Part shown: positions 2,349-28,587 of the stretch, piece after piece
Layout of the letters: each line of letters opens with the position of its first letter
How positions within the stretch are numbered: the stretch's first letter is position 1
Source: Porphyridium purpureum
Taxonomy: Eukaryota
NCBI GenBank assembly: GCA_008690995.1
Contig: VRMN01000014.1
Span: 186,001 to 250,000 of the forward strand
DNA length: 64,000 nucleotides
Direction: 5' to 3'
The notes under the pieces: model-generated
The model's input: the letters and a program-made list of their open reading frames with translations, nothing else
Databases searched by the model: none
Told to the model about the DNA's origin: nothing
Position numbers and translations under genes: made by a program

Positions 2349-3094
2349 ACTCCCCGATTATTCCTTCACAGTATTCATCGATTATCTCAGTCCCACATTT
2401 TTCCTTGAAGAACTTGAAAGCAGGTCAAGACAAAGGTTGCGAAAGAAAAGCCACAGTTCAGAAATCAAGCAGCCATGCTACTATGGTGCATCTGAATGGC
2501 GCGCAGCTTTGGTCATACCTATCCCGCGGTCGTATCGTGCACATTTGAGTACGAAACGAAAAATAATCAAAGAAGAGCAACTGATTGTTTGAGTTGTGGG
2601 TTGTTTTCGTCAGGATACAGTCCAAAAGGATAAGGAATAGGTTATGTAAAGAGCAGTCAAAGCCGCATTTGACTGAACGGCGCGACATTCTGATTGGCTG
2701 CTTTGTGCTACGTTAACTGTAGGACGGCAATCGTAGAAAGGGCTTACTTTCAGCACAAAACGCCTTCAAATATCGGCACGAAGTGACTGTCGCATGAGCA
2801 AAAACGATTTTTGAAAGCTAATTTGTTTTTTTCTTCCCACGATATTTCTTCTTGATACCTGTCCGAGAGAGAAAACTTGAAACTGGTTTGATCAGCTTCG
2901 AGCTGGTCGTGCTCCTCCGTCGTTGCACACTACACTGCTCCACAAGAGTACGCCAATTTCTCTTAGGATCAGGTTCCAATCGGTCCCACCGTCATGCCAA
3001 TCTGTAACTCATCAACTTAGCTTACGGCGTAAGATGGGAGGTTAACCCATGACCTTGAAATTAGTCCCATGTTCTATCAATAGGTGTCTTTTAA

Positions 3095-3495
3095 AGGGTA
3101 TATACTGTACGGTTATAAGACGTATTCTGCACATTTATAGGGTGATTATGTACATTTACACAGGGTGTAGACATTATAACGGTAGAGTATGTATTACCGA
3201 TAGTACCTTATAAGTGTACAGATTAAGCATTATAAGCGTACAGTATATATTGATTTTCTACGCCTTACATTCGTACAGTACATGTGTGGAAGGAAATGTA
3301 TAAGTGTACAGGATAATTTTGCACACGTGTTTATGTGTACACGCCTGTCGTATATGCGTACAGTATATATGTACATATATGAATTATATCTGTCGATTAT
3401 ATTTGTACAGTGGATACATACACACAAGCCTTGCAACTGTCGCTTTATACTCGTACAATATACATGCACGTAACTACATATGTAGACATACAACA
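3095..3495. repeat. Left subterminal AT-rich degenerate short-period repeats (TTATAAG / GTACA)
   Basis: Abrupt switch to AT-rich sequence with recurring gtaca, ttataag and tatatgtac motifs, mirrored at 14527-15170. Confidence 0.7.
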
Positions 3496-3981
3496 TTGGA
3501 GACTTGTGACGATACGGGCGAACGCCTAGCATTTCGGAAGCGGGCACGAAACGAACACGGAGTCACGGCAAGCACAGAGAAAAGACAACGGCTGTGCGAC
3601 ACGCACCGAACGAAGAAGATGCACGACAAGCACAGCGGAAAAACGACGGTCGTACGACATACGCAGAGAAGAAATGAAGAAGTAGCGCAAGCACAGAGAA
3701 TAGATGACATTCGAGCAGCAAGCACACACGAAACCCACATCAGTCGTACGACAAGTATCGAAGGAAGCCGAAGAATCACGACAAGAACGGAAGTATGATG
3801 AGAAGCGCATGTACATGGGAGTAAAACCAAAAGATTGGAGATGGTCAAGGGTTAGTCAGTCGTCCGTACGGAAATGCTCAAGAACAAGAGGAAGTACAGC
3901 GATGCACATCTGGTGCAAGCCAACATACCAAGCGTGTTACAGTCGCGCTCCCACTTTGTGCGAGGTGCCTCAACTCATCTG

Positions 3982-5964
3982 TCACATTAAAGCGTGCAAG
4001 TCGTCGACCGCCTCAAGACGTTTCTTGAGCTCATTTTCGTCGTCGGGACCGAGCGATACACGCGCACGCGAAGAAATGGTTGAGTCGCTGATTTGACCGC
4101 TCATATCCTCCAGCGTATGCATCAGTTCCATGTTCTTCTGTGCGGTACCGCGTTCGACCACTTGCAGTTTCATTCGCACCTGCTCGAGTTGCATGACGAC
4201 TTTCCCGTCGCTGGTCGGGACTTCACACGTCGTATTCGCGAACGCGGACCACTCGATTGCAGTGTCCCACGGCCATTCGATGGTTCTCTGCATGCCCATT
4301 TGTGCTCCGCGTGCGCGAACATATTCATCTCCATCGCTTTCTACTTGCGCGCTTCGGGACCCGGTATCCAACTGCAAGGTGTGCACCACAGCTCGCAGAA
4401 TTTCCATGCAGATAATCTCGTAGCGCATCAAGCAAACAATGGCTTCGCGTGACAAGCCGTGCGGCGATGCGCCGGAAGCTGTGGTCGCTGAATACGCTTG
4501 CAATGGCGTTGGAACTTGAGCTTGAAACCGTCCATGTGCCGTACGGCTTCGACACCAGAAAGGATTGACTGGCTTAGAGACACAGAGAGCAAGCATGCCG
4601 TGTACGATGACTTGTACAAGCTTCTGTCTCCATCGCATGACAATCTGGTCGCGCGACTCGAACAGGGTACGCACCTTGTGGTTCTCGATTGCCTTTGCAA
4701 TGGCCGGGTACCCGAACACTTCTTTCATGATCTCTGAAGTGCTATTCTGACCGGTGCCGGGATCCGCCTGAAAGGTGTAAAGAAACCTGTCGTACATAGT
4801 GTTTCTTGCGTGTCGCACCATGCCGTGCAGAACAGCTCGCACATTGAAGCGCAATCGTTGGAGTACTCCCTTAGCCGTATCCAGGTCGTTGTGCCTCTCC
4901 ATGAAGTTGTCTACACTTGTGCACAGCGAGGTACCTCCAGCCTTGAGCGCGTGCAGCAAGTCGAAAGACTCAAGATCGCGAATTGCAGTGCTGCGGGTAT
5001 TGGAGTCTGTGCTCCATATCATCCGCACAGTTTCAAAAAAGTATGTACTGGTGCCAGCGCATAAAGGCAAGAGTCCAGTGCGCAGCAGGTTACGCGTTGC
5101 GATGTCGCACGACGAATTACGTGACCGACGCAAGTGGCTCCTACTTTGCTCCATAGCCGTACTGTCGCACGGCTCCGTTTGCGTGTGAGCACCATCCATG
5201 CGCGCACCTGATGTTTCTTGCGACAGGCCGCCCGCCACATTTGGGTTACGACCCGTCCCGCCGCTCCAAAGACCCGTCAGTACGGTGTCGTCTTGTGGGG
5301 TACCCCTCTGAGTTACACAAGGTTGAACCGTCTCGCACTCAAGCTGGCTGTCCTGCGAGTCGCTAGCAAGATGCGGTGCCGCTGTCGCACTTGCACACTC
5401 CCTCTGCGCTTCTGCAGTGATCCTCGGTGCACATTCCGGAGATCCGCTGCCGCCCAACTTTGGCACAACACTTGCGATATCTTGCGGTGCCGCTGTCGCA
5501 TCTGCGCATTCTTCTTGCGCTTCCGCGTTGATCCTCAGAGCACCTTCCGGAGATCCGCAATTGCCAACCTTTGGCACGAGGCCTGTGTTTTCTTGCGGTG
5601 CCGCAACATCATCGGACGCATGGCTATCGTCATCAGTCTGGTTTGATTGTGATGATCTAGTTGTATCCGAGTGCGCGTTTGGTTCCTGTACAGGATTCGA
5701 GGGCAACAAACTTTCCCGAGACTGCAGTCCAACTGGGTCCGCCGTATCGCGCCGCAGCACTAGCATCCGCTGCGGTTTCTCCTTGTACGGCTCACATCGC
5801 TTCTCGACTGAAACCGTGCGGCTGGAAGAACTGCTGAAGTCTCCTCCACGCGTGCGCGCTTTCTTTTTCCGACCCGCCAAGCTCGCGCCAGCTTCTGCTG
5901 CCTTTTTCGACGGCCTGCGCGCACGCGTGCTCGAACCGGCAGCGCCATCGTGCCCCTGTTCCAT
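3982..5964 (-). CDS. Transposon cargo protein of unknown function (disordered basic N-terminus, 2 x ~37-aa repeat, helical C-terminal region with terminal coiled coil)
   Basis: Open frame 3982-6057 with first ATG at 5964. Internal repeat AAPQENTGLVPKVGNCGSPEGALRINAEAQEECADAT / AAPQDIASVVPKLGGSGSPECAPRITAEAQRECASAT. No family recognised; true start uncertain. Confidence 0.65.
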   Translation of the reverse strand: MEQGHDGAAGSSTRARRPSKKAAEAGASLAGRKKKARTRGGDFSSSSSRTVSVEKRCEPYKEKPQRMLVLRRDTADPVGLQSRESLLPSNPVQEPNAHSDTTRSSQSNQTDDDSHASDDVAAPQENTGLVPKVGNCGSPEGALRINAEAQEECADATAAPQDIASVVPKLGGSGSPECAPRITAEAQRECASATAAPHLASDSQDSQLECETVQPCVTQRGTPQDDTVLTGLWSGGTGRNPNVAGGLSQETSGARMDGAHTQTEPCDSTAMEQSRSHLRRSRNSSCDIATRNLLRTGLLPLCAGTSTYFFETVRMIWSTDSNTRSTAIRDLESFDLLHALKAGGTSLCTSVDNFMERHNDLDTAKGVLQRLRFNVRAVLHGMVRHARNTMYDRFLYTFQADPGTGQNSTSEIMKEVFGYPAIAKAIENHKVRTLFESRDQIVMRWRQKLVQVIVHGMLALCVSKPVNPFWCRSRTAHGRFQAQVPTPLQAYSATTASGASPHGLSREAIVCLMRYEIICMEILRAVVHTLQLDTGSRSAQVESDGDEYVRARGAQMGMQRTIEWPWDTAIEWSAFANTTCEVPTSDGKVVMQLEQVRMKLQVVERGTAQKNMELMHTLEDMSGQISDSTISSRARVSLGPDDENELKKRLEAVDDLHALM

Positions 5965-5989
5965 CTTCCTAGAGTGCTCCTTCTGCCAC

Positions 5990-6038
5990 TTCCTGCCCCG
6001 CCTCCTGCCCCGCCTCCTGCCCCGCCTCCTGCCCCGCC
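5990..6038. repeat. 12-bp tandem repeat (CCTCCTGCCCCG) x ~4
   Basis: Directly visible in the sequence. Confidence 0.9.
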
Positions 6039-6439
6039 ACCTTGTCGAACAACCCACACCTCCCGACTTCTGCTTCCTCTTCGCTTTCTTCCTTGATGCC
6101 GTGCGGCATGGATTTATAATTGTCTCTAGCTCTCGTTATGTAGCAAACCATACCTTTTGGAAGCGATTTTATGCAAACCGTGTGTGGGTCCAAAAATGGC
6201 GCGCTCAACAAGAAAAAGGGCGCGCTCGCAGAAAATGGATAGCGTACACTACTAAAAAGAGGGGTGTACACCATTTAAAACTTCTACAGTCTTATATGGT
6301 GAACCTTACGCGTGCCGCCCTGTATCCAAGGCGTACACTACTATTAGATGTGCACTCAGCACGCGTTGCATATAGCGTTTGACCTTGTTCGCATGAAAGG
6401 TGCAAGTGCTTGAGCGGGCAAGTGGAGGAGGCGGAATGA

Positions 6440-7321
6440 ATGAATGCGCCAAAGGCCGGCGACCAGGAGGCGGAAAGCATGGCCGATTTCGTGCTGCACA
6501 GCCTGGCAAACGGTGTAGCTCGCATAGCTACATCGCTGGAGAGGGCCGAAACCATCCTGGACAAATTGTTGCTTCTTGTGCAGGCACCTGACGACAGTGA
6601 TGAAGTCTATGAACGCGACGCGCAAGCACAGGTACCTGCGGTGCCGGCATCTGTGGTTACCGAAGGCAAAAGCGCGAAGCGCAAGCGCACTCCGGCCAAA
6701 GTCAGACGGACAAAGCGCGTACGCGTCGAGGACGAAGGATCTCGGGCTGCATCCGTGACGGATGCGTACGAAAGTCTAGTCAGCGGTACCGCAAAGACTG
6801 TTGGGTTAGAATCTTGTGTCGCGTCTTTGATCGTTTTATGCAAAGCTGAACAGCAGATATGGTGGCCTGCACGGGTGTATCTGGACGCACGTCAAATTCC
6901 TGTCGGCGTGAAGCGGTTGGATGCACGTCAGCATGCACGCGCACGTGGCCGCTTCTCGTTCGTTGCAGTACGGTACTTTCCCACTGACCGCAATGAGTGG
7001 GGGATCGTGCGCGTGACTCCAGAGAACATACTACCTTTGGAGGTTTTCATGGAGTACTCCGATGCGACTCGGCGAAGCAAGGTCATCCAGAAAACTCCCG
7101 TCGCCATGCGTGCGCGTTTTCATGAAGCGTTAGAGATCGCGTGCGCGGAGTTGCGGGTCAGATCTTCTGACGTACGTCAAAGCACGCACAATGAGGCACG
7201 AGCGAAGCGTGAATCGTTTGTTGGCTCTGTGCATATGGATCCGCAGAAGGGGATGGAACATCGTGCACACGAGCGTAAAGTGACTGAAAGTCAGTTTTCG
7301 TCGTCATCAAGTGAGCATTAA
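6440..7321 (+). CDS. PWWP-like domain protein (transposon cargo)
   Basis: IVLCKAEQQIWWPARVY...VAVRYFPTDRNEWGIV...ENILPL...ARFHEALEIACAEL matches the PWWP pattern (WWPA strand, V-x-F/Y-F, aromatic cage W, C-terminal 'F..Al..A' helix). Also an N-terminal coiled coil and a basic NLS (KRKRTPAKVRRTKRVR). Confidence 0.75.
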   Translation: MNAPKAGDQEAESMADFVLHSLANGVARIATSLERAETILDKLLLLVQAPDDSDEVYERDAQAQVPAVPASVVTEGKSAKRKRTPAKVRRTKRVRVEDEGSRAASVTDAYESLVSGTAKTVGLESCVASLIVLCKAEQQIWWPARVYLDARQIPVGVKRLDARQHARARGRFSFVAVRYFPTDRNEWGIVRVTPENILPLEVFMEYSDATRRSKVIQKTPVAMRARFHEALEIACAELRVRSSDVRQSTHNEARAKRESFVGSVHMDPQKGMEHRAHERKVTESQFSSSSSEH

Positions 7322-7377
7322 ACGGGTACCCGTGCGAATCATTTACTCAGTTCATTTTGTCGTACGACTGGTACGCT

Positions 7378-8340
7378 TCATTTACCGTCCGCATTACTCT
7401 GATGTCTGTATTCAGCGCGTACGCGTCGTTCCTCTTGCGTGGTGCTTGACACAGCAGCTTGGACGCGTTCCACTGGCTCATCCACATTGTCCGCGATTGC
7501 TTGCGTACGCAGAGATGGTCGCATACGCCTCGGTACAGGTGCCTGTGGGTGACCATGTGACGAGGTCGCAACGCTGACCTCTTGATGATACCATGCATAT
7601 TCCCCTCCCTCCAAGCGACGTACGGGAACCCGACGCTGATTCACGAACTTGCACTTGACTACGTGGTCAACGCCGCCGTATTTTTGTAGGCACGTATGAG
7701 CCGCGTACGCGTCGAATTCGAAGGCCGGCGGATCATCCCAGCGATACTTTCTTTGGCCGTTCGGCAAAACGATTGCGTCTGTATCCCTCTTGAATAACTT
7801 GCAAGCTGTCCACTGGTGCTGTAACTGGCACCATGCCAACCACATGCGCTCGTCCATTTCGGGTGCCCGCAACGGTCCTTTTTCAGCGTACAACGTGTGC
7901 TCGAAGAGCGTCACCGAAAGGCCGGCGCATTCTCGTGCGAGTTCCCAAAACTCGTAGGCGTACACCAACCTCTTGTACTCAATATCGCTCATATTTATGA
8001 CGCTGTTGTCGCCGAACGGCTTCTCATTGAGCTTTCTGCCGTGATACTGGGGGTACCCCTCGGTGCTGCGATTTGGGGCTTGCAAGCGAGCAATGTCGTA
8101 CCCAGAAATCTTGTCCAATATATCTCTGAAGCGCACTCGCCACATTTGTCGTGCAACGTCTCTATCCTCGTACGAGATCAACTTCTCGTCACTTTCAGTC
8201 AAGCGAAAGAAACCACGCACCGCCGGCATGGAGTAAGCGCGTACGCGAGGCAGAAAGGACCCGACCAAATCTCGGTTCCATGTTCCGTACAGCGCTCGCT
8301 TCAAACCCGCGTCAGAATCGCTCCCACCCTCGCTACACAT
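7378..8340 (-). CDS. Transposon cargo protein of unknown function, paralogue of 8591-10627
   Basis: ~320-aa ORF with first ATG at 8340. Shares ordered motifs with the divergent neighbour (SYE, D..G.D.A, HGR, AY..W.LAR..A, W.AWC.L.H). Confidence 0.7.
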   Translation of the reverse strand: MCSEGGSDSDAGLKRALYGTWNRDLVGSFLPRVRAYSMPAVRGFFRLTESDEKLISYEDRDVARQMWRVRFRDILDKISGYDIARLQAPNRSTEGYPQYHGRKLNEKPFGDNSVINMSDIEYKRLVYAYEFWELARECAGLSVTLFEHTLYAEKGPLRAPEMDERMWLAWCQLQHQWTACKLFKRDTDAIVLPNGQRKYRWDDPPAFEFDAYAAHTCLQKYGGVDHVVKCKFVNQRRVPVRRLEGGEYAWYHQEVSVATSSHGHPQAPVPRRMRPSLRTQAIADNVDEPVERVQAAVSSTTQEERRVRAEYRHQSNADGK

Positions 8341-8590
8341 GACGTTCACCCGCCCTCACGACACCTTCAAGACCGCAGCCTCTATGCTTGCTCACGTACG
8401 TGTCCAGCCAGCCCCTTTTTCCCTGCTCTCGGCGCCGCCCACGAGATTGGCGATGTCATGACCAGCGAAGATTATACAACTCGGGTTCACGTGGACCGCT
8501 TTGCCTACCGACAACGTAAGAAAGAGAGATCGCGAAAGTGTGATCGCTGGAAATTTGCGCGCACGCGGAAGAAGCGGAGCTGTGCTTGAG

Positions 8591-10627
8591 ATGGCGAATC
8601 CGAAGCTGTACAGCGAGCTTGCGCCGAGCCAATCAGTTGAGTTCGCGCGCCGTGAACTTGTGACTGCGCTGATGGGACAGTACGGCGTAGGGAGCAACAA
8701 GGAATTGCAGCGGATGGTGCTGAGCGAATCGTGCTCGTACGAGGAGGAGACAATTTTGCGCTGGGTACCCGCTCTGAAAACCATCTTCAAGAGGTATGAT
8801 ACCATGGACGGAGCGGATCTGGCGTACGCCCGAAAGTTGCAAGTGACTGTCGGCGGTTCGACTCGAGGAAGTGGTCTACGAGTGAATGCAGGTTGGCCGC
8901 ACGGCAGAGAAGTACGACGCGGTGTCCGTCACCGACCGGAAAAGACGTCGGCGTATTGGGTATGGTCACTCGCACGCATCAATGCGCGACGTGCAGTACG
9001 GCAGGATCTGCGCCGCCGCGGTGTTGCAGTGGATGACCTTGGCGCCGCGGCGGCAGCAGAATATGAGTTCGACTTGGCGCCAGGAGAACAAGAAAACGTT
9101 TTGTGGTATGCATGGTGCATGCTCAACCACGCGTACGCGTGCAACAGCGTATTTGATAAGGTCCAGCCAGGTACCTGGGAGCAGCCCGTTAGTGATGCAC
9201 CATTGGGCACCCCATTGCAGTTGAGTGCGGTACCGCTGTCCTATTCGACCATGTGTATGCCACAACTCATTGCGGACCATGCCGTGCGGCCAACGGATCT
9301 GGCATGGACCGTGGTGATCCAGAATCTCTTCGACGAATCGGATGACAGCATGTACATGAAGCACCACCTGCTGTGCGATCCGGACAACGCAAATACACTT
9401 CAGAGGAAGCCGTTGGATCCGGGTGAGAGAGCCGTTCGGCTTGTCCGTGCGTGGCAGCATTTGGAGCTGAACATGGGGCCTCTTCAAGAACAGCAATACG
9501 AAGTACTCCAGTCGCCGTTCGGCCACGTTGTAAGTCTCTTGGAGCCGCGGGGCCACGACTTGGTGATCGGCGTACAGCCCCCACCAGACGGGTGGCCGTC
9601 GTTCAAAACGTTTCTGCCGCACGGCTACTTGGATGTTCCAGGCTTCTACAAGGGACCAGACGACGTGGCCAATGTACGCCGCTTCAGCGATACCGCATAT
9701 CATCCGCACGCCCTGTTTCGCATGCGCCAGCGATTTGAAGACGAAGGGAAAAAAGCGGCGGCAGCGCGTCTCCTGCGTTCGCAGCTCGCGCACGCGACTT
9801 CAGAGGCGGACGAAGATGAGCGCAGACGTGGTGACCGGCGCTCGCGTGAGGATGCGGGTCGGCTCGATCGGGATTTCGGACAGCCGTGGGGCACAGTGCC
9901 ATGGTTGCGGTCCGCACCCACTGCAGAGCACGTTGACATGGCGCGTCGCACGACAAATGGCGAGGGGAGTCCAAGGATACCCCGATACCCGGGAGCGACC
10001 GCGATAGCTCAGCGCGACCGCATGGAGATCAAAAGAAGCCGTACGGCTCCCTACGAAGTGCCTCCAACAGCGTACCCGGTTGGATATGATGCTGTACCAG
10101 CGTCAGTAACGGATCCAAACTACAGATACGAAGGGAGGCGCCGCACGGCAGCTCATACGGAACCCATTCACGCGCACGCACAGCAAGAGCCTATTCGGCG
10201 TGCTTTCGCAGAGGAATATGGATGGCGTCAAGGTGATGAGAGTGGATTTGAGGCACCTCGCTGGGATTCCGGGGCATCTGCGTATGCAGCTGGCGCAAAT
10301 GATTGGTACGTTGGCCAGCCACGTCCTGGGTACGACGTGCCTGCTGTGCAGCCTCCTGGGGTACCCTTTGCATATGCACAAGGTTCGAGGCCTTGCGGCG
10401 CACCCGTCATGCAACCGTACGAGGTATTACCTGCGCAACATGCACAGGTTTATGGGGCACCCCCTGTATACGCACAAACCCCGACGTATTTTCCATCTCA
10501 TGCGCATACTGCAGGTCAGGGATGCCGTGGTCAAGTTTTCGATCATTGGCAGCAGCCCGTTCGTGAGCTGTCTGCACAGACGTACGTCGAAGGAGACGAG
10601 CGAAGGGGCTCTGCACACTTGCGGTAG
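8591..10627 (+). CDS. Transposon cargo protein: N-terminal domain paralogous to 7378-8340, low-complexity Y/P/G/Q-rich C-terminus
   Basis: Open frame from 8501 with first ATG at 8591. The frame stays open after the TAG at 10625-10627 until a TAG at 10871-10873. Confidence 0.75.
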   Translation: MANPKLYSELAPSQSVEFARRELVTALMGQYGVGSNKELQRMVLSESCSYEEETILRWVPALKTIFKRYDTMDGADLAYARKLQVTVGGSTRGSGLRVNAGWPHGREVRRGVRHRPEKTSAYWVWSLARINARRAVRQDLRRRGVAVDDLGAAAAAEYEFDLAPGEQENVLWYAWCMLNHAYACNSVFDKVQPGTWEQPVSDAPLGTPLQLSAVPLSYSTMCMPQLIADHAVRPTDLAWTVVIQNLFDESDDSMYMKHHLLCDPDNANTLQRKPLDPGERAVRLVRAWQHLELNMGPLQEQQYEVLQSPFGHVVSLLEPRGHDLVIGVQPPPDGWPSFKTFLPHGYLDVPGFYKGPDDVANVRRFSDTAYHPHALFRMRQRFEDEGKKAAAARLLRSQLAHATSEADEDERRRGDRRSREDAGRLDRDFGQPWGTVPWLRSAPTAEHVDMARRTTNGEGSPRIPRYPGATAIAQRDRMEIKRSRTAPYEVPPTAYPVGYDAVPASVTDPNYRYEGRRRTAAHTEPIHAHAQQEPIRRAFAEEYGWRQGDESGFEAPRWDSGASAYAAGANDWYVGQPRPGYDVPAVQPPGVPFAYAQGSRPCGAPVMQPYEVLPAQHAQVYGAPPVYAQTPTYFPSHAHTAGQGCRGQVFDHWQQPVRELSAQTYVEGDERRGSAHLR

Positions 10628-10957
10628 TACGTTGGACCTGCATCATCGCTGATACCCGTACGGGGTCCGCCTGGCTATGGACGTATACCTCTACGTCCGT
10701 CCGCGCATGTGCTTGCACCACCTGGGCATACGCCTGTGCAATACGCGCAGTCTGGGCTGGTGCGCGGCGGAGATTATGACGAACAATGGCCCGAGCAGAG
10801 AGATGAACAGACGTACGTCTATCCTCCGAACGAATCCAACGAGTACGATCCCGAGAACTGGCGTATGATCTAGAGTCTGGTTCGATGACACATTTGAATG
10901 TTGACAGCACCTGCCAAAGAGAATTTTAGAAAGATGCACATCAATGTCAACGGCGTT

Positions 10958-13900
10958 TTATGACCACAACTCTATGCCGTCGAATACATCAGGTCGCAGA
11001 ATAAACCACCATCTTGCAGGCACCTGTCCATTCTCACTTTCACGCACGATTCCGCAACGCGTAGCGTATTGTGATGAAGAGGATGATGCTGCGCCGGAGT
11101 CAAGTGCGGTACCGCTGTTATATGTGTCCAAGAACGAAGTGACCTTGCAGCGCAGCTGAGAAGCCATCACAATTTTGACACCAGCTTCTTCACGTACGTG
11201 ATCAAAAATGCTTCTGACGTGCGCACAAACCGTGGACCCACTGTTGATTGGAGGAACTCGCTCAACTTTCAAGTGTCGTACGACGACAATGGCTTGCACA
11301 CATGGCGCCACTAGCTCAGTACCCGGAGACAATTCATCGTTGGACCGCCCTGGATGTACATCAATTGCGATCGTCCCGATCATCAGTAAGCGCGCGTAGC
11401 GAAGACGTTGACGTACGTCGTCCCAATACTGAACGAAGTCGTATCGTTCCTTGCCGTAGTAGTTCCAGAACGCAATAAAGCGCTCACCTTGCGTGGTAGC
11501 ATGCTTTTGCCGCACGGCGATACGAGGTGTAAAGCTCACATTGTACACTTGCTCGTGCGAGTTCTCCACTTCATTTGGCATCCAAGTGCGATGAGATTTC
11601 TGGATGTGACTCGTAAGCGTATCCCAAAGGGCAACAGTCTCTTTCGTCGTTGATGTAAATCCACCTGACGTTGAGCTGGTGTGCACATTTGCGGGAAACG
11701 ATGGCATATCCATCACACGGAAACTCCATTCACCTGTCGATCGCGTGCGCGCGCAGCTCCAAGAGTAAACGGGAGCTTCTGGCCATGTCCCAGTACATAC
11801 AACACGTTCCGGTACCGGCGCTGCCCTGAATGCCAAAGGATGTGTCGGGTCTCCGGTTCTAGAGTCGTACGAATTTGACATAGAGTGTTCCGTCGGGTCG
11901 AGAAGCAGGTTGCTGATATCAGCAATGTCAAATCGCTCATGCTGCTCGAGCATGTACTTATGCGGTGCCGCCAGATTTACGCCAGCCACTTTTCTGTGTA
12001 CCCGTTTGCACACGCGCATAAGCGACTCGCTTGTACAAGTATCATGCAACCGCTTGCGCCCGAACTCCTCCAGATCTTTGCATAAATGCAAGAGCGCGTG
12101 GATTTTTGGGGCATCCCAGGTGATTCCCGTCAGCTGCCTTAGCTGCCCGATCATGTCCATGAGGCTCTTCACCAAATTATTCGCCTCACCTACATGCGCA
12201 TCTGTTGGTCGGGCAAGAGACAGCTTTGCATACACAGATAATGCCTGACAGCACGTGCTCAGATATACTGCATTCCATGCACGGCCCATGGCCCGATAGT
12301 AGCCATCACAGGCGACAGCCACAATAACTTGTACAAGCAGCCCTGGAGAGTATTTGTTCTCCACCATCTTTGACAGCTGGTCGAACGGATTTGGCGTGCG
12401 CCGAATCGGAATATACGCTCCCGTTGACCGTGTCAGGCGCTCTTGATCTTGCACATTACTAATTGCAACCAAGTATTTGCCAAGCGCAGATTTACGAATT
12501 CGTGTGATGTTGTCAGCCGTGCGGCGTCCACCGCTCACCTTTCGGCGTTTCTTCCGTCGCGTACTCTCACCGCCATCACTTTCATTCGTGTCCGAGGAAC
12601 CGAGCTCGCCAAGGTCGCTTTCAATGTCATGGACTATCCCGGATGCGTCGAGCTCCGCCAGCGCATCGCTATCGCGTACGCGCTTTTCATGTGCGTACCG
12701 GTCGACAATGTACAAGGAAATATTCGCCAACTGACGGAGTATTCCAAGCTTGAAACCATGCATCCAATCAACACCAACGAGTGCAAATAGACCGCGCTCA
12801 TCCCAACGATTGAGGTATCTCAATTTAACACCCGGAATATGGCGAATGTTGTATGCTGCACGCTGTCTCGCAGCACTGCCTCCCGACTGTTCAGACAGCG
12901 CAAACATGGGCTCTTCCTCGCGATACTCAAACTTAGCTTGCGCGTTGTATGCGTCGGAACCCGTCACAAGGCACACTTGGCATGGCCGTTCCTGAGTCAT
13001 GCGCGAATTCAGTGTCACACTGACGGTCGCCACCATGGGCATGTCGCAAGCAAACCTGTACAGGACTGGAAGCCATTTGATCATTGATCCATCGTGCCGT
13101 ACGACAAGAGAATGTCTTTCCAAAGCGGCTGGCTCCGACATTATCGCGAACGGATCGAGCAAAAACTGCAGCACCGCGTGCATGACGCAAGGCGTATCTT
13201 CAGATGCCTTGCCGTCATCTGGCGTCTTTGGCGCGTACGCGATAACGCGCGGCTCGAGGGGTCCGTCGTGCATGAACCTGTGAACAAGGTACAAAGAAAT
13301 TGGAGTCAGCGAGTGAATTCCATTTGCTCGCATCTGCGCGCCGTCGATGCAAAGCATAACTGGCACCAGCATGATATCAAGTGGTACCGCGTCACGGATG
13401 CGGCGCATGTGCGCCGCATCCTGCGCGTGGGTCAGAATAGTTTCGCCACGCTCATTTCTTGTACAACCAACTTCAAATGCCCGTTCGCCGTACCGGTGCA
13501 ACACGAGAGCAAGCTCGCGCCCAATCAAAACCATTGGATCGCGGTACCGCAGGTCTACGCGTAAGTGTTTTCCTACACACTTAACCACCAATCGTTTGGT
13601 GTGCACCGGCGTCGTCATTGGTCCGATGTTTTGCAAAACCCTTCCATTCAAAAATCCACTCCTCCCCGGAATTCGGTCACGTACGTGAGGCTGACTCAAC
13701 AGAAACCAATTCTTGAGAGCCGTTCTGCAGCGACCACTCAGCGCGTACGCGCAGATGATGTGCTCAAACACTAACTCGACAAGTGGAGTCCCACTGAATT
13801 GTTTTCGCGAGTGCTCGGATATTAGTGCCTGTATGCTCTCAGTGGCCTCCCATGCTGTGTATCCTGCTGCACCCACAGGTAGAGCAGGCGTCAACGCACG

Positions 13901-14245
13901 CACGTGATGTGTCTCTTCTCCCATACCAGACGTAACCTCTTGCACACAGTCCGAGTTCCCGTCAGACCAATCATCCAGCGCGTACGCGAAGCCGGCAAGG
14001 GAGTCTTGACTCACATTACTCGCACTTGATCGACCGACTGATTCAACGTCCGACCTGGCAGAGTCCGCAGATGCAACGACGGGGTGCCCCATTTGAAAAA
14101 CACCCGACCCATCAGGGCACGTCAGAATTTGTACAGGAACCTTGCAATGGCCCACATGCGCAGCAAGACTCTGGCGGATACTGAATCCGAGCTGCACCAT
14201 TGACTTTCCACAAACCGGGCACTGATCCGCCGAATCTCCAAGCAT
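10958..14245 (-). CDS. Plavaka/CMC-type DDE transposase with N-terminal C2H2-like zinc finger
   Basis: CPVC...HVGHC finger; PVMLCIDG...SLTPISL; FACDMP...RPCQVC; VDWMHGFKLG; PKIHALLHL..FG...TSES; C-terminal RYDFV. Intact 1095 aa. Confidence 0.85.
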   Translation of the reverse strand: MLGDSADQCPVCGKSMVQLGFSIRQSLAAHVGHCKVPVQILTCPDGSGVFQMGHPVVASADSARSDVESVGRSSASNVSQDSLAGFAYALDDWSDGNSDCVQEVTSGMGEETHHVRALTPALPVGAAGYTAWEATESIQALISEHSRKQFSGTPLVELVFEHIICAYALSGRCRTALKNWFLLSQPHVRDRIPGRSGFLNGRVLQNIGPMTTPVHTKRLVVKCVGKHLRVDLRYRDPMVLIGRELALVLHRYGERAFEVGCTRNERGETILTHAQDAAHMRRIRDAVPLDIMLVPVMLCIDGAQMRANGIHSLTPISLYLVHRFMHDGPLEPRVIAYAPKTPDDGKASEDTPCVMHAVLQFLLDPFAIMSEPAALERHSLVVRHDGSMIKWLPVLYRFACDMPMVATVSVTLNSRMTQERPCQVCLVTGSDAYNAQAKFEYREEEPMFALSEQSGGSAARQRAAYNIRHIPGVKLRYLNRWDERGLFALVGVDWMHGFKLGILRQLANISLYIVDRYAHEKRVRDSDALAELDASGIVHDIESDLGELGSSDTNESDGGESTRRKKRRKVSGGRRTADNITRIRKSALGKYLVAISNVQDQERLTRSTGAYIPIRRTPNPFDQLSKMVENKYSPGLLVQVIVAVACDGYYRAMGRAWNAVYLSTCCQALSVYAKLSLARPTDAHVGEANNLVKSLMDMIGQLRQLTGITWDAPKIHALLHLCKDLEEFGRKRLHDTCTSESLMRVCKRVHRKVAGVNLAAPHKYMLEQHERFDIADISNLLLDPTEHSMSNSYDSRTGDPTHPLAFRAAPVPERVVCTGTWPEAPVYSWSCARTRSTGEWSFRVMDMPSFPANVHTSSTSGGFTSTTKETVALWDTLTSHIQKSHRTWMPNEVENSHEQVYNVSFTPRIAVRQKHATTQGERFIAFWNYYGKERYDFVQYWDDVRQRLRYARLLMIGTIAIDVHPGRSNDELSPGTELVAPCVQAIVVVRHLKVERVPPINSGSTVCAHVRSIFDHVREEAGVKIVMASQLRCKVTSFLDTYNSGTALDSGAASSSSSQYATRCGIVRESENGQVPARWWFILRPDVFDGIELWS

Positions 14246-14539
14246 TGCAGTGCTGCTTCAATTGTCGGAGGCGATGCCCGACGTACGTCACTTTTTTCAC
14301 AATTGAAGACGTGCACACGCGCACCAAATCACCGCTGCCCAAGTGACCTCACGGCCTCTGACAAAGTCTGCAGCCACACAACCCGTCACTACGACCGCCC
14401 CCACACGCACAACACATATACATAAATCCTTCTCGTCAGAAACCACCTCCACCATGAGAATCCCCCTCCCCCTTCCCTCTCCCCGATCAAATTTCAAATT
14501 TGCGTCAACATTCTGTAGAATGAGACTTGTATACGTACA

Positions 14540-14940
14540 TTATGCCTTATAAGCGTACATTACAATTGGATAGTGTATATGCGGACCTGTTTATGTTCAT
14601 TCTGCTTTATAAGCGGCAATATAATGCCTTATATACGTGCGTTATGCCTTATCAGCGTACATTACAATTGGATAGTGTATATGCGGACCTGTTTATGTTC
14701 ATTCTGCTTTATAAGCGGCAATATAATGCCTTATATACGTGCGTTATGCCTTATAAGCGTACATTACAATTGGATAGTGTATATGTGGACCTGTTTATGT
14801 TCATTCTGCTTTATAAGCGGCAATATAATGCCTTATATACGTGCGTTATGCCTTATAAGCGTACATTACAATTGGATAGTGTATATGCGGACCTGTTTAT
14901 GTTCATTCTGCTTTATAAGCGGCAATATAATGCCTTATAA
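14540..14940. repeat. 102-bp tandem repeat, ~3.9 nearly identical copies, in the right subterminal region
   Basis: Unit TATGCCTTATAAGCGTACATTACAATTGGATAGTG...ATATACGTGCGT starts at 14541, 14643, 14745 and 14847. Each unit contains GC(C/T)TTATA sub-motifs. Confidence 0.95.
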
Positions 14941-17900
14941 TTGTACATTTGTGCCTTGTATGTTTACACAACGCCTCATATACGTATAAACACCTCATAA
15001 ATATACAAAACACCTTATATCGGTTCGCCTATATGCTGTACGATTACAATGTACACTTATAAGGGGACATTGTACATTTATAAGTTGTGGCACCTTATAA
15101 TGGTACATTTCCGCCTTATAACTGTTTATTCTGCCTTATTAATGTACAATTTCACCTTGTAACCTGCAAAACCCTGAAATCAAAGACACAGACTGATGCC
15201 ATTCTATTCTAGTTTGGTAAGCTGAAGTCCAAGTGCAGACCAGGCTATGAATGGTAGAGATCCAATATTCCCTGAACAATATTTACATTCGTTGCACCGT
15301 TGTTTCTTGCCCAAAGCGTGGCTGAATAATACGAGAAACAAAAGACACGAAACGGGATACACAAAAAAAGATGGTAATAGAGCGAAAGGTCCAACGTCTA
15401 GCGTGAGTACAGAATGTTCTTCCCATCGGCAGCCGCAGGACCTTTATCGTCAGACAGCAAAGTGATGTCACCCTTATTCCGGGCCAGCTGTCATCCATTT
15501 CTGCCCCAGACATCCGATGCCGTAGCTCTCTGGTACACAAGGTCCGGAAATCCCACCCCGCTTTCCAACGACCGCTCTCACACCTTTCTCTGTATTCTTT
15601 CCTTACCTCTGCCAGGCTATCTGGAAAAGTAAGCCTACCTGTCGGCCTACCGCCCCTTTGTAGCCAGCGTCGGCTGGACGAATGCACCTCCTCCGTAAAA
15701 TGGGATGCTATAAACCTCCGCCGACTCTTGGCACTCCATAAAAGATGCTACTGATTTACTAGCTGTCAAAGCCTCCAGCCTCCGAATCAGGACGTCGCCT
15801 TTGTGCGCACTGCTTCCACTTCAGCCCTTACGAAACGATTCGCCTACTTTTTCTCGCCATGCATCCACCACTTACACAACCAACATCACATTCTCCGGGA
15901 CTCTCGGCGCTAGCGAGCTGTAATATTCATGAGCATGCATACAAAAGGTCTCTTGAGGTACATAAAGACTTGAAAAGTATCAACGAGCGTACTCGAGAGA
16001 GTATGAATGACTTCGCATAGCAATGAAACACATATTTCAGCGAAAGAGGGGATCCACACTGGATGAAGAATCTTTTGCATTGTATTGCAATGACTTGTTT
16101 CCAAGTTTATGGAAGAACACTTTATTCTGAGACTGCGAAGCATTACATTGCGATGCGGAACTCCCAAGCACTCATACTTTGAGCTATCCTGCTAGTTTTG
16201 ATCTAGTATGAAGTTGAAAAGCAAGAGGGGGTTCAAATTGCTTCGTTTCATAAGAGACCCTTTAGATTGTGTAGTTACTTTTTCATGGACTGCGGCTGGA
16301 TTTCGTCGGCGCTTGGAGGAAGCAAATGGTTTGGCAGGGAGTGCTTATTCGGAATCAGAATGGATAGATACAGTGAGTAGACTTTCACAGAGTCAATAAT
16401 TGCGAACATCCACAATCCGACTACAAAATTAGGTCGCGCCCGTCAACGGCGCATTGTTTATGCCCGATTGTATGGGCATGTAAAGCGCAGGCGACGTCGA
16501 GAACGTGATTGAAACAGTGAAAGTGCGACACGCGGGTCTTTGACGAATGTGTACGTGAGCGATCTCGTGTGTCGTGGAGTGCTACCTGCTGTAGTGAAAC
16601 CGGTTGTACTTGAGACAGGGGCTCGGCAGTTCTGGGATCGGATGGAAATTCTCGCCGCAGCCGTTGATGACCAGAAACTTTCCGCGCATGGGCTCAACCA
16701 ATTCAATTCATTTGCGCAATGGTATTCTTCTGAAGGTTTCATAGGTCCAAATTTGGCAGTTTTGAGTCGACAGTCAGCGGGCATCCTTCACAGTTTTAGG
16801 AAAGGAGCGGGTAAGCGATTGAGTTCGGAAATTTGGAAGTGCTCGATAATATTTTTATTTCAATTTAGTGGTGTCGACTCGGGTCTTTACAACGTCACGT
16901 GGGGTATCAGGGCTTCTTCTCTGGTAGAACATTTCGTTGTGAGACCATTACTCCACCGTGACATATACAAAAGCATGATTGCGCAGATACTATAGGCAAA
17001 CGTGAAAGTTTCTGGGGTAGATACGGAACTTTCCCAGGAATACAAAGCCTGCTGCGTTCGGATCGAGATTGCGTGGATAACAGTTATCTAATTTGTGTGC
17101 GTGAGCGTGTTGCGGAGGTTCCGCAACACTTTGAGAGGCGTATGTCATGATTATTCTATCGGCCTGGTACGTGATAACGCGCAGAATTTCCCACCTAATA
17201 CAGGCGCGAAGACACATGGGGAGGTGAATGGGCTATGGTCGCATAATCTGATGATATCGGATTCTCGGCCTTCGCGACATTGTAACGCTAGATCAGCAGG
17301 ATTTAGAACATGCGGCGTTCAAAACAGGATCCTTTCACCCGTATCCGGTTGGATATCGAGGGCATGTGTATACTACAGATGTACACAGCGCATAAGGCGT
17401 GCGTGTGAGATCGCGCCGCATAATCCACCAATTTTGTTTGCAATGGGTCAAGGCCAGAAACGTCACTGCAAAAGTCTGAGGGCGGAGGAGATGTCAGCGT
17501 TTCTCTGCGTAAGGGTATCGCGAATGTGGAATCAAGGTCCACAAATCCAAATTTGCTGGATCCTAGCCAGGTGGCGAATGGCGTCAACCACAGCACTGCT
17601 GTCGGTACGTGTGCATGGACAGAGTCCATTTTTTGGGAACTGTACATGCTGAGTGAAGGTTGTGACTCCTCCGGAGGGTTCAAGAGTGTTGGAATTGATT
17701 GACATATCACGTGCATCCTTGAAAAAGAAGCTCGGTCCGATACAGCTCGCGAGCGATTGCTTTGTACAAGCAGTAGACCCGCCAGTCAGACTGCATGTTG
17801 GTGCTCATCGATTGCGCCGAGTGGTCCACTCGTGAGCAGTGGACTGCAAGCTGAGGGTGGGAGATCTTTGAGCCTTCGATGCGCCAAATACAGGTGCTGT

Positions 17901-18923: not shown

Positions 18924-19950
18924 TGTCGGCAAGGCGCCAAGCCTCAACGAGCGACAGGAGGGCGTGGTTGTTGCTTTGGTTGCTGAGGCTCATTCGCTGT
19001 GAGTGGTCGCGGGCAGCCTGGGAGGATCTCGCTTCGTAATGGTAGTAAGGAACTACCTAAAATGCCCGGAAAAGTACGGCAAACGGGGACTCAATGAAAC
19101 CGCTGGAAAAACGACACCTTACCTGCGCCGAAAGATTAAGAATGTCCTGAAATCAAAGCCATTTTTTTACTGCAAGCCAGGTGCATGGAGGCATCTTGTC
19201 AGCACGTGCCAAGCCAGTCTCCGTGCAAACGGTCCGACTTGTCATTCGAAATGAGCACACATGGAAGAAGCGCAAGAAAGTGCCACATTTGCAGGATCGC
19301 CATCAGCAGGCTCGTGTAAAATCTGTGCTTGATCACCACTGGAAGTGCGAGGAACAGCAAGAGATCGTGTTCACGGACGGGAAAAAGTGGAGTTTAGACA
19401 GTCCTGATGGCTTGAAGATCTACTCGGCGAGTTTGGAGCAAGAGCCAGCTGTATGTTGAAGTCGTGTTTGTGGTGGACAGAGCTTGATGGTCTGGGGAGC
19501 GATAAACGGCGACTGAAAGCTTGCTCTTTTGTTCACAAAAGACTACTATGCGGGCGGCCAGACTGCCACAAAATACGTGGAAATGTTGGACAGGTCTCGA
19601 GTCATTGTGAAGGCTAAAGAAAGGCTTGGATACTTCAAGTTCATGCACGACGGGACTGCCTCCCATAGGGCCCAGGTCACGAAGGACTGGTTGCAACGCA
19701 AGTACGTGGAGGTTCTGGATTGGCCCGCGCTTCCGCCAGACCTGAATCCAATTGAGAATGTATTGGGCCATTTGACACGCCAGGTTTGCGGTGGATGCAA
19801 GCAGTAGTCGAATGTGAAAGGGCTACGAGAGGCAATCGAGGATGCGCGGGAGAAAATGGAGGATTGCCACTTCAGAGATTTGCATGTCGGCATGCCGAAG
19901 CGGATCATTGACGAGGCGTTGGTGCAAGGAAGGAAGTGCCACTTTGAGAA
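18924..19950 (+). pseudogene. Tc1/mariner (Tc3-like, DD34E) transposase remnant
   Basis: Fragments in several frames: VRNYLKCPEKYG (HTH region), IVFTDGKKWSLDSPDG, FMHDGTASH...VLDWPALPPDLNPIENV; stops and frameshifts. TIRs not identified; boundaries approximate. Confidence 0.85.
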
Positions 19951-21329: not shown

Positions 21330-21603
21330 TGTCGGCAAACCCTAAAACCCACAACAGCGCATGAGAAGAGCATCATGTCGCGCAACGGGCTGCCGTGCGT
21401 GTTTCTGTGCTGTTTCGCAGGCAGCGCGAAACCACTGCGCGGGAAAAACGTGAATTTGAAAGAAATGTCGCGTTTCCGGAGGGAAACGCCGGGCGCGCGT
21501 GCGCGTGCGGGATGGAGATCGAAAGCGCGGACGGCGCGCGCGAGCAGGATGTGAGAAGGGTCTGGTGTGGACGGGTGGCGCGGACGCGCGGGCAGGAGGC
21601 AAG

Positions 21604-24600
21604 ATGGCGGCTGCGTTGAGCATGGCGTGGCACTCAGGTTCGGTGTACTCGGTGGAATATTCGCCCGATGGCAAGCTCCTCGCGTCTGGTAGCCGGGACA
21701 ACACGATGAAGGTGTGGAACGCACAGACTTATGCGTGCGTGCGCACCGTGACGGGGCACGCAGATTGGGTGCGGGCCGTGCACTTCTCGCCCAATGGCAA
21801 GCTCATCGCGTCCGGCAGCCATGACAAGACGCTAAAGCTGTGGGATGCACAGACCGGCGCGTGCGCGCGCACAATGACGGAGCATGCAGATAGAGTGCCG
21901 ACGGTGCATTTTTCGCTCGATGGCCGCTTCATCGCGTCCGGCAGCAGCGACAAGACGGTCAAGGTGTGGGATGTATACACTGGCGCGTGCGTGCGCACCT
22001 TGATAGGGCACGAAGGTGGGGTACAAGCGGTTCACTTTTCGCCCGACGGCCAATTCATCGCGTCCGGCAGCAGTGACAAGACGATCAGAGTATGGGACGC
22101 GAAAACCGGTGCGTGCGTGCGGACAATGACGGATCACTCAGATTGGGTGCAGGCGGTGCGCTTCTCGCCCGATGGCCGGTTTATCGCGTCTGGCAGCAAC
22201 GACAAGACGATCAAGGTGTGGGACACAAAGACCGGCGCCTGCATGCGCAGCTTGACCGAGCACGCAGATGGGGCGCAGGCAGTGCACTTCTCGCCCGACG
22301 GTCGGTTCATTGCGTCCGGCAGTAGCGACAAGACGATCAAAGTATGGGACGCAAAGACTGGTGCGTGCATGCGCACCGTGACGAGGCACGCACATGGAGA
22401 GCAGGCGACGCAGTCTTCGCCGGATGGCCGGTCCGTCGCGTTCGGCAGCGGGGAGAAGACGGTCAAAGGACGGGACGCAAAGACCGGTGGGCGCGTGCGC
22501 ACTGTGACGGAGCGCGCACATGGGGAGCAGGCGCTGCACTCTTCACCCCATGGCCAGTTCATCGTGTCTGGCAGCCGGGATGAGGCGGTGAAGTTGCGGG
22601 ACGAACACACCGGTGGGTGGGTGCGCACGAAGACGGAGCACTCTGCGGGAATGCCGGCGATGCACTTCTCACCCGATGGCCGGTTCATCGGGTCCGGCAG
22701 CGACGGCAACACGGTCAACGTGTGGGACGCAAACACCGGTGCGTGTGTGAGCGCCATGACAGGGCACGCTGATCGTGTGCGGACGCTGCATTTTTCGCCC
22801 GATGGCAAGCTCATCGTGTCTGGCAGTGATGACAAGACGGTCAAGGTGTGGGACGTACAGACCGGCGCTTGCCTGCACACCATGGCAGGACATGCAGGTG
22901 TGGTGCGGGCCTTGCATTTCTCGCCCGATGGCAAGCTTATCGTGTCCGGCAGCCATGATCAGCTGGTCAAGGTGTGGGACGTACAGACCGGCGCGTGCGT
23001 GCACACCATGATCGGACACGCAGATTGGGTGCGGGCGGTGCAATTCTCGCCCAATGGCAAATTCATCGCGTCCGGTAGCGATGACAAGACGGCCAAGCTG
23101 TGGGACACAAAGACAGGCGCGTACGTTCATACCATGACGGGGCATGTACATGGGGTGCGGGCGGTGCAATTCTCGCCCAATGGCCGGTTCATCGGCTCTA
23201 GCAGCAGCGACAAGACGATCAAGTTATGGGATGCACAGACTGGCACGTGCGTGCTCACCATGCTGGAGCACAAAGCTTGGGAGCTGGTAGTACACTTTTC
23301 GCCCGATGGCTGTTTCATCGCATCGGGCAGCGGGGACAACACGGTCAGCGTGTGGGACGCTCGCACCGGCGCGTGCGTGCGTACGATGACAGGGCACACA
23401 GGTGGGGTGCAGGCGGTGCAATTCTCGGCCGACGGCCAGTCCGTCGCGTCCAGCAGCGATGACAAGACGGTCAAGATGTGGGATGCACACACAGGCGAGT
23501 GCGTCCGCACCGTGACGAGGCACGCTCATGGAGTGCATGCGGTGAACTGTTCGCCCGATGGCAAGTTTATTGCGTCCGGCAGCGATGACAAGACGGTCAA
23601 GGTATGGGACGTACAAACCGGCGCGTATGTTCATACCATGACGGGGCACGCAGATTGGGTGCTGGCGGTGCACTTTTCGCTCGATGGCTGTTTCATCGCG
23701 TCCGGCAGCAGGGACAACACGGTCAAGGTGTGGGACGTACAGACCGGCGCATGCGCGCGCACCATGACGGGACACTCAGGTGGTGTATGCGCGGTGCGCT
23801 TTTCGCCCAATGACCAGTTGATTGTGTCTGGGAGCAGTGATAGCTCGGTCAAGGTGTGGGACGTACAGACCGGCGAGTGCATTCGCAGCATGACCGAGCA
23901 TGCAGCAGGTGTGCAGGCGGTATGCTTCTCGCCCAACGGCCAGTTCATCGCGTCCGGCAGCGGCGACAAGACGGTCAAGGTATGGGACGCAAATACCGGC
24001 GCGTGCTTGTGCACCATGGTCGGGCTCTCGGATTGGTCGTTCGTGCGTGCCACTCGATACTTGAGTGGGTCGAACACTGGGCATTCAGATGGGGTGCAGG
24101 CGGTTGACTTCTCGCCCGATGGTCGCTTCATCGCATCCGCCAGCAAAGACAAGACAGTTAAGGTTTGGGACGCACGCACCAGCGCGTGGGTGCTTACGAT
24201 GACGGGGCACTCTGACGTTGTGGGGGCGGTGCACTTTTCGTTCGATGGCCGGTTCATCGCGTCCGGCAGCTGGGACAACACGGTCAAGGTGTGGGACGCA
24301 GTCACCGGCGCGTGCGTGCGCACACTAAACGGCCACTCAGATCAAGTGCGGGCTGTGCACTTCTCGCGCGATGGACGGTTCATCATGTCCGGCAGCCGGG
24401 ACAAGACGGTCAAGGTGTGGGACGCGCACACAGGCGAGTGCGTACGCACTATCGACGGGCTTTCAGGTCAAATGACTGCGGGGACTTATTCTTCAGGCAG
24501 CCATTCAATCGCGTCCGTTGGCGGCGAGATGGTCAAGGCAGGGGCTATTGGCGGTGTGAATGGCGGACCCGAACCTAGCTTTTTCGTTGCTTTCTTCCAG

Positions 24601-28128: not shown

Positions 28129-28587
28129 AAGTAAAGCGTCGCCCGTGTGTCGTGCGCCGCGTATAGCAAAACAACCGAGCGGGTGTTTATCTCGTGGTGC
28201 ATCTACTGACTCACGCGAACGAGCGCATCCGCCACATGAAGTCGCATTCCCGGCGCGGCGTGGAGAGCGGATGTTTCCTGTAAACGTGTTTGGCACACGC
28301 ATTGCACCAGCTGTGATCCCGCGTCAGACGTGTGACATGCGACCGGATGTGCTCCGACTTGCACCGTCGTGTGACACACGGACTTTTGCGGTTGAGTCCA
28401 CCGACCGGCGTTTACGTGGCGAGTCGGTGTGCGCAAGCGCGCTCCAGTCCCCTCCATCCGAGTGGATTCGCTGCGCTCCCCAGCGTGCGAAGCGTGACCA
28501 CATCGAGCGAGGCTCGCAGAAATCCGCGCGATCACAGTTACGGACAAAGAAGACTACTGGTTCTGCCTGGTAAGGACTGTGCGTGTC

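Follow-up and report, generated by a model that had tools for sequence, protein, structure and literature searches.

Giant transposons of the Plavaka type, in which the transposase gene is accompanied by the accessory genes PAG1 to PAG3, have been described from the red alga Bostrychia moritziana and other florideophytes (10.1101/2025.02.11.637652). In the part of that report available to us, PAG2 unites N6-methylase and SET domains, PAG3 has ParB-like and 2OG oxygenase regions, and neither PAG1 nor PAG3 carries a Pfam signature. Chromatin roles are proposed there for the accessory genes, and inverted repeats are proposed as PAG3 sites. We analyzed a 64,000-nucleotide stretch of the unicellular red alga Porphyridium purpureum (assembly GCA_008690995.1, contig VRMN01000014.1, positions 186,001 to 250,000; hereafter the window, whose own numbering is used throughout) and found that it contains a five-gene Plavaka-like transposon whose interior is studded with short palindromes. 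The element resembles those of Bostrychia in being a large multi-gene transposon with a Plavaka-type DDE transposase in a red alga, in having accessory genes for which we also propose a role in chromatin, and in its palindromes, which recall the inverted repeats. It differs from them in its cargo (a PWWP protein plus proteins C and D, with A, in 12 kb, versus PAG1-3 in 17-19 kb) and in the layout of the palindromes, which here are dispersed through coding sequence and have free arms, whereas those of Bostrychia form tandem arrays beside one gene. The host also differs, as the available text of the same report finds Plavaka only in Bangiophyceae and Florideophyceae and names neither Porphyridium nor PWWP. 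An earlier note on this DNA had regarded Plavaka transposases as described mainly from fungi and CMC elements as usually having one or two genes, a picture that the red-algal elements with three accessory genes have made out of date. While multi-gene red-algal Plavaka elements are known, the other cargo, the other ends, the unicellular host, and the palindrome lattice described below are new.

The block is a mobile DNA transposon that is polymorphic among samples. In sequencing runs X4 and X12 (two samples from one study, and two of the four runs compared over 2400-3560), a contig follows the left flank up to 3077 and continues with letters that match 15198-15227, with 2 mismatches in 30 compared to 12 at the next best place. 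These runs thus carry the empty allele, the polymorphism that the earlier note had suggested looking for. The filled left junction is carried by X1 (possibly the source) and X3; X6 was uninformative. The filled allele reads AT, CAATAGGTGTCTTT...AAAGACACAGACTG, AT, from which it follows that the termini are 5'-CA..TG-3' and that 2 bp of target site (AT) were duplicated, both defined from this one insertion. Based on the empty allele, the whole transposon occupies 3078..15195 (12,118 bp), with the two AT copies at 3076..3077 and 15196..15197 on the + strand; the ends drawn previously, at 3084 and 15189, were each 6 bp short. A guessed terminus of GTGTC..GACAC with an AG duplication was ruled out by the same allele. 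Near-identical pieces of the left end are also present in X4 and X12, so these samples are either mixed at the site or have the element at another place. In X1, X4, and X12 there is also another left end, 84% alike, at a different flank, and its alignment reaches 3069, nine letters past the end inferred at 3078. A loose end at 3097, considered as the terminus of the subfamily 2 introduced below, was rejected, as it mirrors 3252-3281. X1 and X3 contigs differ from the element at 0-1 positions over kilobases, which argues that its DNA is not an assembly artefact.

Sequence comparison of the two ends identified imperfect terminal inverted repeats at 3078..3091 (+) and 15182..15195 (-) that agree in 11 of 14 letters. 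Inside them lie AT-rich subterminal fields, at 3092..3470 and 14526..15181, built of TATAAG(C/T)GTACA-type units, which in the left field occur in both orientations; the right field also holds a 102-bp tandem array of 4.1 copies at 14526-14939. These units are likely to be the transposase-binding sites. The matching of the two fields, pointed out previously, is borne out by the heptamer TTATAAG: all 19 copies in 3078-64000 fall into the end fields, with 4 at the left end, 15 at the right end, none in the 11-kb interior, and none in the 48.8 kb to the right of the element (15196-64000). The G+C content of the ends is 0.36, compared to 0.50-0.63 inside the element.

Between the ends are five long open reading frames (ORFs) in the order -,+,-,+,-, with divergent gaps of 475 bp and 250 bp, just as the earlier note had described. 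ORF A (3982-5964, -) encodes 660 residues with a low-complexity N-terminal half and a 37-residue duplication. It could not be assigned to a known family in Pfam, PDB sequence, PHROGs, NCBIfam, or Rfam searches, and an exact-cluster look-up for its relatives returned a sister on another contig, FVE85_9542, that is 96% identical. ORF B (6440-7321, +; 293 residues) is a PWWP-domain protein, as predicted from its letters, with a Pfam match above cut-off (E 1.4e-7). Its relatives FVE85_0046 and FVE85_2720 are 41% identical and adjoin the transposases of subfamily 2, and a QQIWWPA motif is found in the PWWP proteins of both subfamilies. ORF C (7378-8340, -; 320 residues; gene model FVE85_7760) and ORF D (8591-10627, +; 678 residues; FVE85_7761) share a novel N-terminal domain of about 200 residues, followed in D by a P/Y/G-rich tail. 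The similarity is weak but real (BLASTP E 2e-4), and with a profile of two C proteins, D and both of its relatives rank higher than every one of 2000 shuffled versions of D. The earlier note had likewise taken two of the ORFs for paralogues of an unrecognized domain. Relatives of C are FVE85_0047, 2721, and 9653, and those of D are FVE85_0048, 2722, and 9655; a C/D search, in which 8000 candidates were scored, yielded 5 proteins, all from Porphyridium. ORF E (10958-14245, -) encodes a DDE transposase of 1095 residues. PDB sequence searches with A, C/D, E, and the PWWP protein gave nothing useful, and a search of a viral fold library gave no match below E 0.001.

Although all five long ORFs are present, this copy is not fully intact, as D ends at a premature TAG (10625-10627). 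Its sister FVE85_9655 reads on to 10873, adding about 80 residues, and the gene model of FVE85_9655 itself lacks the N-terminal part. Next to the 3' end of A, on the + strand at 3500-4096, we noted an A-rich strand with three 58-61-bp repeats and a 130-residue frame with Cys/His residues. The region is covered by contigs of a presumed RNA run and is patchily conserved in a diverged copy. As a putative sixth ORF it has no Pfam match and its frames are interrupted by the repeats; possibly it is the remnant of a sixth gene, or else the 3' untranslated region of A.

Three of the accessory genes travel with the transposase. A second subfamily, whose transposase is 71% identical and whose two copies are 97-99% identical to each other, shows the order PWWP, C, D, transposase at FVE85_0046/0047/0048/0050 and again at 2720/2721/2722/2725, as judged from consecutive locus tags on one contig for each copy. 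In FVE85_0050 the first catalytic aspartate is replaced by glutamate. The C models of subfamily 2 start with sequence that matches the reverse strand of the D start, which shows that the head-to-head layout of C and D is kept. Two further contigs hold close sisters of C and D (9653, 9655) and of A (9542). In a 7.8-kb contig of X1, subterminal-type sequence (letters 2225-2325 of the contig) is joined to the start of the PWWP gene, and the space between them is too small for A; A is thus probably optional, and absent from subfamily 2. That the cargo consists of host genes trapped by chance between transposon ends, the alternative by which the earlier note was prepared to be refuted, gains something from A, whose only listed relative is on another contig. 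However, two other contigs have B, C, and D next to the transposase in the same order, none of the five ORFs is present in the empty allele, and A has a palindrome density of 10.6 per kb, like the rest of the element. Chance capture is already refuted for B, C, and D, and we regard it overall as extremely unlikely. With the empty allele and the recurrence of the cargo, the proposal of a multi-gene cut-and-paste element in an alga stands.

The transposase places the element near Plavaka elements. Transposases of the CMCT group are defined by a DDE triad in which the motifs C(2)C and H(3-4)H lie after the second D and before the E, and by 5'-CA..TG-3' termini with a 2-5 bp duplication (PMC12730594, of which part was available to us). 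ORF E has D301, D401, C422-x2-C425, H716-x3-H720, and E740, thus showing this signature, and the element has CA..TG ends with AT duplicated. The residues D301, D401, C422, C425, H716, and H720 are invariant in all nine aligned transposases and E740 follows in the alignment; which acids are catalytic is taken from their order. The structural model of ORF E (mean predicted local distance difference test score, pLDDT, 46.6) has RAG1 as its top Foldseek match (E 1.4e-4), and structure comparison gave VIA RAG1 (Z 13.8, root-mean-square deviation 4.5, 370 aligned) and Transib (Z 10.5), so that, within the limits of such a model, its core has the RAG1/Transib-like fold expected of CMCT. Residues ~810-1080 of the model match several BAH domains at Z 8-9, including that of ORC1 (Z 9.2, root-mean-square deviation 5.0, 126 aligned). 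Among the Atlas clusters nearest to ORF E, ranks 1-3 score 0.97-0.98 and carry PF18759, the Pfam Plavaka family, on 29-35% of members; a cluster with PF18759 on 100% follows at 0.95 and Transposase_21 at 0.94. Pfam itself gave no PF18759 match at E<=1 for ORF E or for 11 relatives and fragments. We therefore file the element as CMCT and Plavaka-like on the basis of residues, Atlas neighbors, fold, and ends; the Plavaka/CMC-like call of the earlier note holds to that extent, without the PF18759 match. As described in the available part of PMC12730594, the fungal PlavakaA and PlavakaB share with this element the DDE, C(2)C, and H(3-4)H residues, CA..TG ends, and 2-bp duplication of CMCT. The end sequences here, CAATAG/CAGTCT, fit neither PlavakaA (TGT..ACA) nor PlavakaB (CATCA..TGATG), and unlike the fungal elements this one has no PF18759 match and no TET/JBP cargo. 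Likewise, in distinction from PAG2 of Bostrychia, no SET or N6-methylase domain was matched in A-D by Pfam at E<=1.

A profile of ORF E and two relatives retrieved 13 proteins among 1.84 billion, from P. purpureum families and metagenomes. The transposase tree comprised the 14 relatives found. In P. purpureum we observed this kind of transposase in at least three other families (FVE85_1203, 8538, and 2435; 3459, 2563, and 2976; 4214), which were recently active, as their copies are 96-99.7% identical. Five full-length relatives lie on metagenomic contigs of 4-10 kb; metagenome scans and viral scans found no related locus.

The interior of the element carries a lattice of palindromes. Between 3368 and 14319 there are 107 ten-base sites of the form SNN-G(TA/CA/TG)C-N'N'S', with a median spacing of 87.5 bp. 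They use 30 different arms, with G or C as the outer base in 103 of 107, and one sequence, CGCGTACGCG, has 9 copies inside the element and none outside. The density is 8.8 per kb in the element and 0.4 outside, the remaining ~52 kb of the window containing 22 sites; it is within this window that family-specificity is judged. Sites lie in all five ORFs (89 of 107, at 8.5-11.3 per kb), in all three frames, on both strands, and in every intergenic gap, including 6 at 3501-3981, and the lattice ends at the subterminal fields. The rule emerged when three-base arms were looked for around loops of every length from 0 to 8 bases. Perfect arms flank 54 of 105 GTAC cores in 3501-14525 but 4 of 171 in the rest of the window (p 1e-64); the corresponding counts are 28/95 versus 14/388 for GTGC (p 5e-26) and 24/103 versus 4/346 for GCAC (p 7e-20), or 52/198 versus 18/734 for the latter two pooled. 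No other loop length from 0 to 8 and no other four-base core was comparably enriched, the next core reaching p 1e-3, and a fourth arm pair is present in only 10 of the 54 GTAC sites.

In control analyses, permuting the arms left 7.8 sites compared to 106 observed, and free choice of synonymous codons left 6.2 compared to 87 observed in the ORFs. The spacing is too even for chance, with a coefficient of variation of 0.515 versus 0.93, none of 20,000 shuffles as even, and a single gap below 30 bp where 21.8 were expected; no clear helical or nucleosome periodicity was found. Cores outside the motif occur at close to host density (13.2 versus 13.5 per kb and 5.0 versus 3.3), which argues that lattice sites were added rather than converted from existing cores. 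The lattice can also be followed into subfamily 2 at the protein level. Of 68 sites in B-E, 51 align to it, 24 with the peptide kept and 27 with it changed. At 13 of these 27 the changed peptide is motif-compatible at the same offset, compared to 50 of 3399 elsewhere, 6 of the 13 by a core swap and 4 only with other arms. A trace was detected in all four subfamily-2 proteins (z 3.9-8.5) but in none of three other P. purpureum transposase families; in five long metagenomic transposases it is at most weak (z -1.9 to 2.2), and two of four short fragments scored 5.2. The all-or-none complementarity and fixed length of the arms do resemble a copying process, and template switching or snap-back repair at GYAC could leave palindromes as a functionless mutational by-product. 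Yet copying would not give even spacing, would convert existing cores instead of adding new ones, and would not leave sites in place in a subfamily of 71% identity where the amino acids have changed; the neighboring retroelements are also free of the lattice. We consider this origin very unlikely. Taken together, these results show statistically that the element alone has the lattice, that its spacing is even, that it is under selection, that it overrides codon choice, and that it steers amino-acid changes between subfamilies.

A parallel to the lattice is the VANDAL/VANC system of Arabidopsis, in which a dense, family-specific short motif that is nearly absent elsewhere likewise goes together with accessory genes (PMC5735166, available to us in part). 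VANC motifs, by that account, are fixed, tandem, and non-coding, whereas lattice arms are free and the sites are dispersed, even, and mostly inside ORFs; VANDAL elements belong to MuDR, unlike this Plavaka-like element, and homology to VANC was not seen here. The literature that we searched, in which most subscription journals and Repbase Reports were not included, contained no description of dispersed palindromes or mini-hairpins in transposon ORFs; within the same bounds, searches on Porphyridium transposons, on Plavaka, and on PWWP with a DNA transposon did not turn up this element in print. Cyanobacterial HIP1 and DNA-uptake sequences are also numerous short signals that override codon choice, but they are fixed and genome-wide, and viral packaging stem-loops combine variable stems with a fixed loop and override codon choice in RNA. 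We know of no dispersed coding signal of these kinds in a eukaryotic DNA transposon.

The arms hint at what is recognized. When both arms come from the six commonest, 53 sites are matched and 5 mixed, which speaks for pairing over two independently read half-sites; two-of-three arm pairings and G-T pairings are not enriched. Weak variants retain the G and A of the loop (GAAC 9/85, GTAT 8/78), and half of the sites have a C directly ahead of the loop. The occurrence of sites on both strands and in intergenic gaps favors DNA over RNA. Stable DNA tetraloops of the class d(cGNABg) are known (PMC2275088, seen in part), and by analogy a G-Y-A-C loop with its frequent C-G closing pair fits a mini-hairpin of this type. 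Such mini-hairpins would form only in single-stranded DNA or with the help of a protein. The regular spacing suggests a reach of ~50 bp to each side for every bound site.

We propose that this five-gene Plavaka-like transposon carries a selected hairpin lattice as a mark of self, read by its own C/D proteins and directed against silencing, and we put the chances of this explanation as a whole a little short of even. It starts from a mobile element, as shown by the DDE transposase, CA..TG ends, 2-bp duplication, and empty allele, in which B, C, and D move with the transposase and in which, on the statistics above, an element-specific, even, added lattice dictates codons and amino acids. What is recognized would then probably be no fixed sequence but the way in which, on a single DNA strand, the two arms pair around a G-Y-A-C loop. 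That the reader is encoded by the element, the C/D domain being the best candidate, seems slightly favored, because each of the two subfamilies has the lattice together with the C/D cassette and because other families of transposases in the same genome lack the lattice trace. More tentatively, and with somewhat greater doubt, reading could protect the element from silencing over its whole length in the manner of VANC, aided by the PWWP and BAH-like domains; these two domains suggest a chromatin context and, with it, a VANC-like purpose. Only the PWWP domain and the predicted BAH-like fold point to action of the accessory genes on chromatin. Chromatin readers fused to transposons are common (10.1101/2021.11.30.470311, seen in part).

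A number of observations weigh against this proposal. The role of C/D as reader is a guess from co-occurrence; C has an AlphaFold model with pLDDT 35, no family match in Pfam, PDB sequence, NCBIfam, PHROGs, or Rfam searches, and a best Atlas score of 0.78, below lead level; and D is truncated, so the present copy is not fully intact. The PWWP domain of B appears to have Q at the position that usually holds the first aromatic residue of the cage, and PDB sequence searches gave it no solved relative. The BAH-like C-terminal domain of E is predicted from a model of mean pLDDT 46.6. The lattice in subfamily 2 is judged from protein sequence, 14 of the 51 aligned sites are lost there, and 3 of 10 host or retroelement control proteins reached z 3.3-4.0, so values near 4 are not decisive. 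Only GYAC is enriched, not the whole GNAB class, and five sites folded alone gave 0 to -3 kcal/mol, no better than shuffles; three-base-pair arms do not extrude from duplex DNA unaided. Lastly, GCAC sites favor the sense strand (33/93 versus 11/75, p 0.003), a bias that suits the displaced strand in transcription but that an RNA model predicts likewise.

This bias raises the question of whether the sites act as small RNA hairpins in the transcripts of the element, with a part in stability, export, RNA packaging, or the evasion of RNA silencing. Contigs from a run guessed to be RNA are identical to parts of A and E, in keeping with that idea. Against it, antisense-orientation sites are far above background (11/75 versus 5/252 for GCAC/GTGC in host ORFs), G-T pairs are not favored, and sites also occupy the divergent promoter gaps, all of which makes an RNA function quite improbable. 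As nothing that we found ties C/D to DNA, the lattice might instead recruit a factor of the host (an enzyme that modifies DNA, a protein that binds single-stranded DNA, or a chromatin protein) by which the element is labeled as active, with C/D doing something else; G-Y-A-C might be where a modification is placed. However, one would expect to meet a host signal in the genes of the host and in other families too, and neither the host genes nor the other mobile elements of the window have the lattice (22 sites in ~52 kb); we think this improbable as well. Element proteins that read the lattice could also coat the excised 12-kb DNA, compact it, or protect it, or they could join its ends in transposition. 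The spacing, even over the whole interior and stopping at the subterminal fields, would suit such a role, as would the GTAC core common to the lattice and the subterminal units, and some viruses do package their genomes through dispersed signals with variable stems and a fixed loop. But excised cut-and-paste DNA is double-stranded, which leaves three-base-pair arms unpaired, three other P. purpureum transposase families lack the protein-level trace, and the PWWP cargo points to chromatin, so we rate a coating or transposition role as unlikely, if worth some weight.

Several other features lie around the element. A Copia-type retroelement occupies 300-2375, with the end of its long terminal repeat near 2372-2375, and lacks 19 letters at 1411-1428 that other copies have. 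To the right lies a decayed Tc1/mariner-like fragment at 19151-19459 (Pfam HTH_Tnp_Tc3_2, E 0.008). The retroelements at 35400-45500 and 61900-63350 are fragmented and nested; in one of them there are gag and protease, and the pol frame has a weak Myb-like match. Retroelement ORFs near the element, seen in passing, are split over several frames, which would fit the decay that the earlier note ascribed to every retroelement nearby. A gene at 21460-25755 (+) encodes a 1431-residue protein of ~20 near-identical WD40 repeats (126-bp period) with a helical/EF-hand-like tail, resembling rapidly evolving WD40 arrays. At 28498-33777 (+), 13 kb from the element, is an intronless Dicer-like gene with a helicase and two RNase III domains, which shows that the host has RNA-silencing machinery.

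The element extends Plavaka-like transposons to a unicellular red-algal class. The accessory genes of multi-gene red-algal Plavaka elements have no tested function, and resistance of a transposon to silencing has been worked out only for VANDAL. Here the sequence itself displays a likely cis-target that is exact, and paired synonymous changes can destroy and restore it in a culturable alga, which makes the proposed self mark directly testable. In its most specific form, which we regard as speculative and on balance doubtful, the mark would be a structure-based code, a free-arm G-Y-A-C mini-hairpin about every 90 bp bound by a new DNA-binding fold in C/D that shields the 12-kb domain. If so, the free arms would let the mark sit in coding sequence without offering a repeated target to small RNAs or repressors of the host, and a lattice of free but paired arms, with its regular spacing and its hold on protein evolution, would give proteins a novel means of recognizing a long DNA domain.

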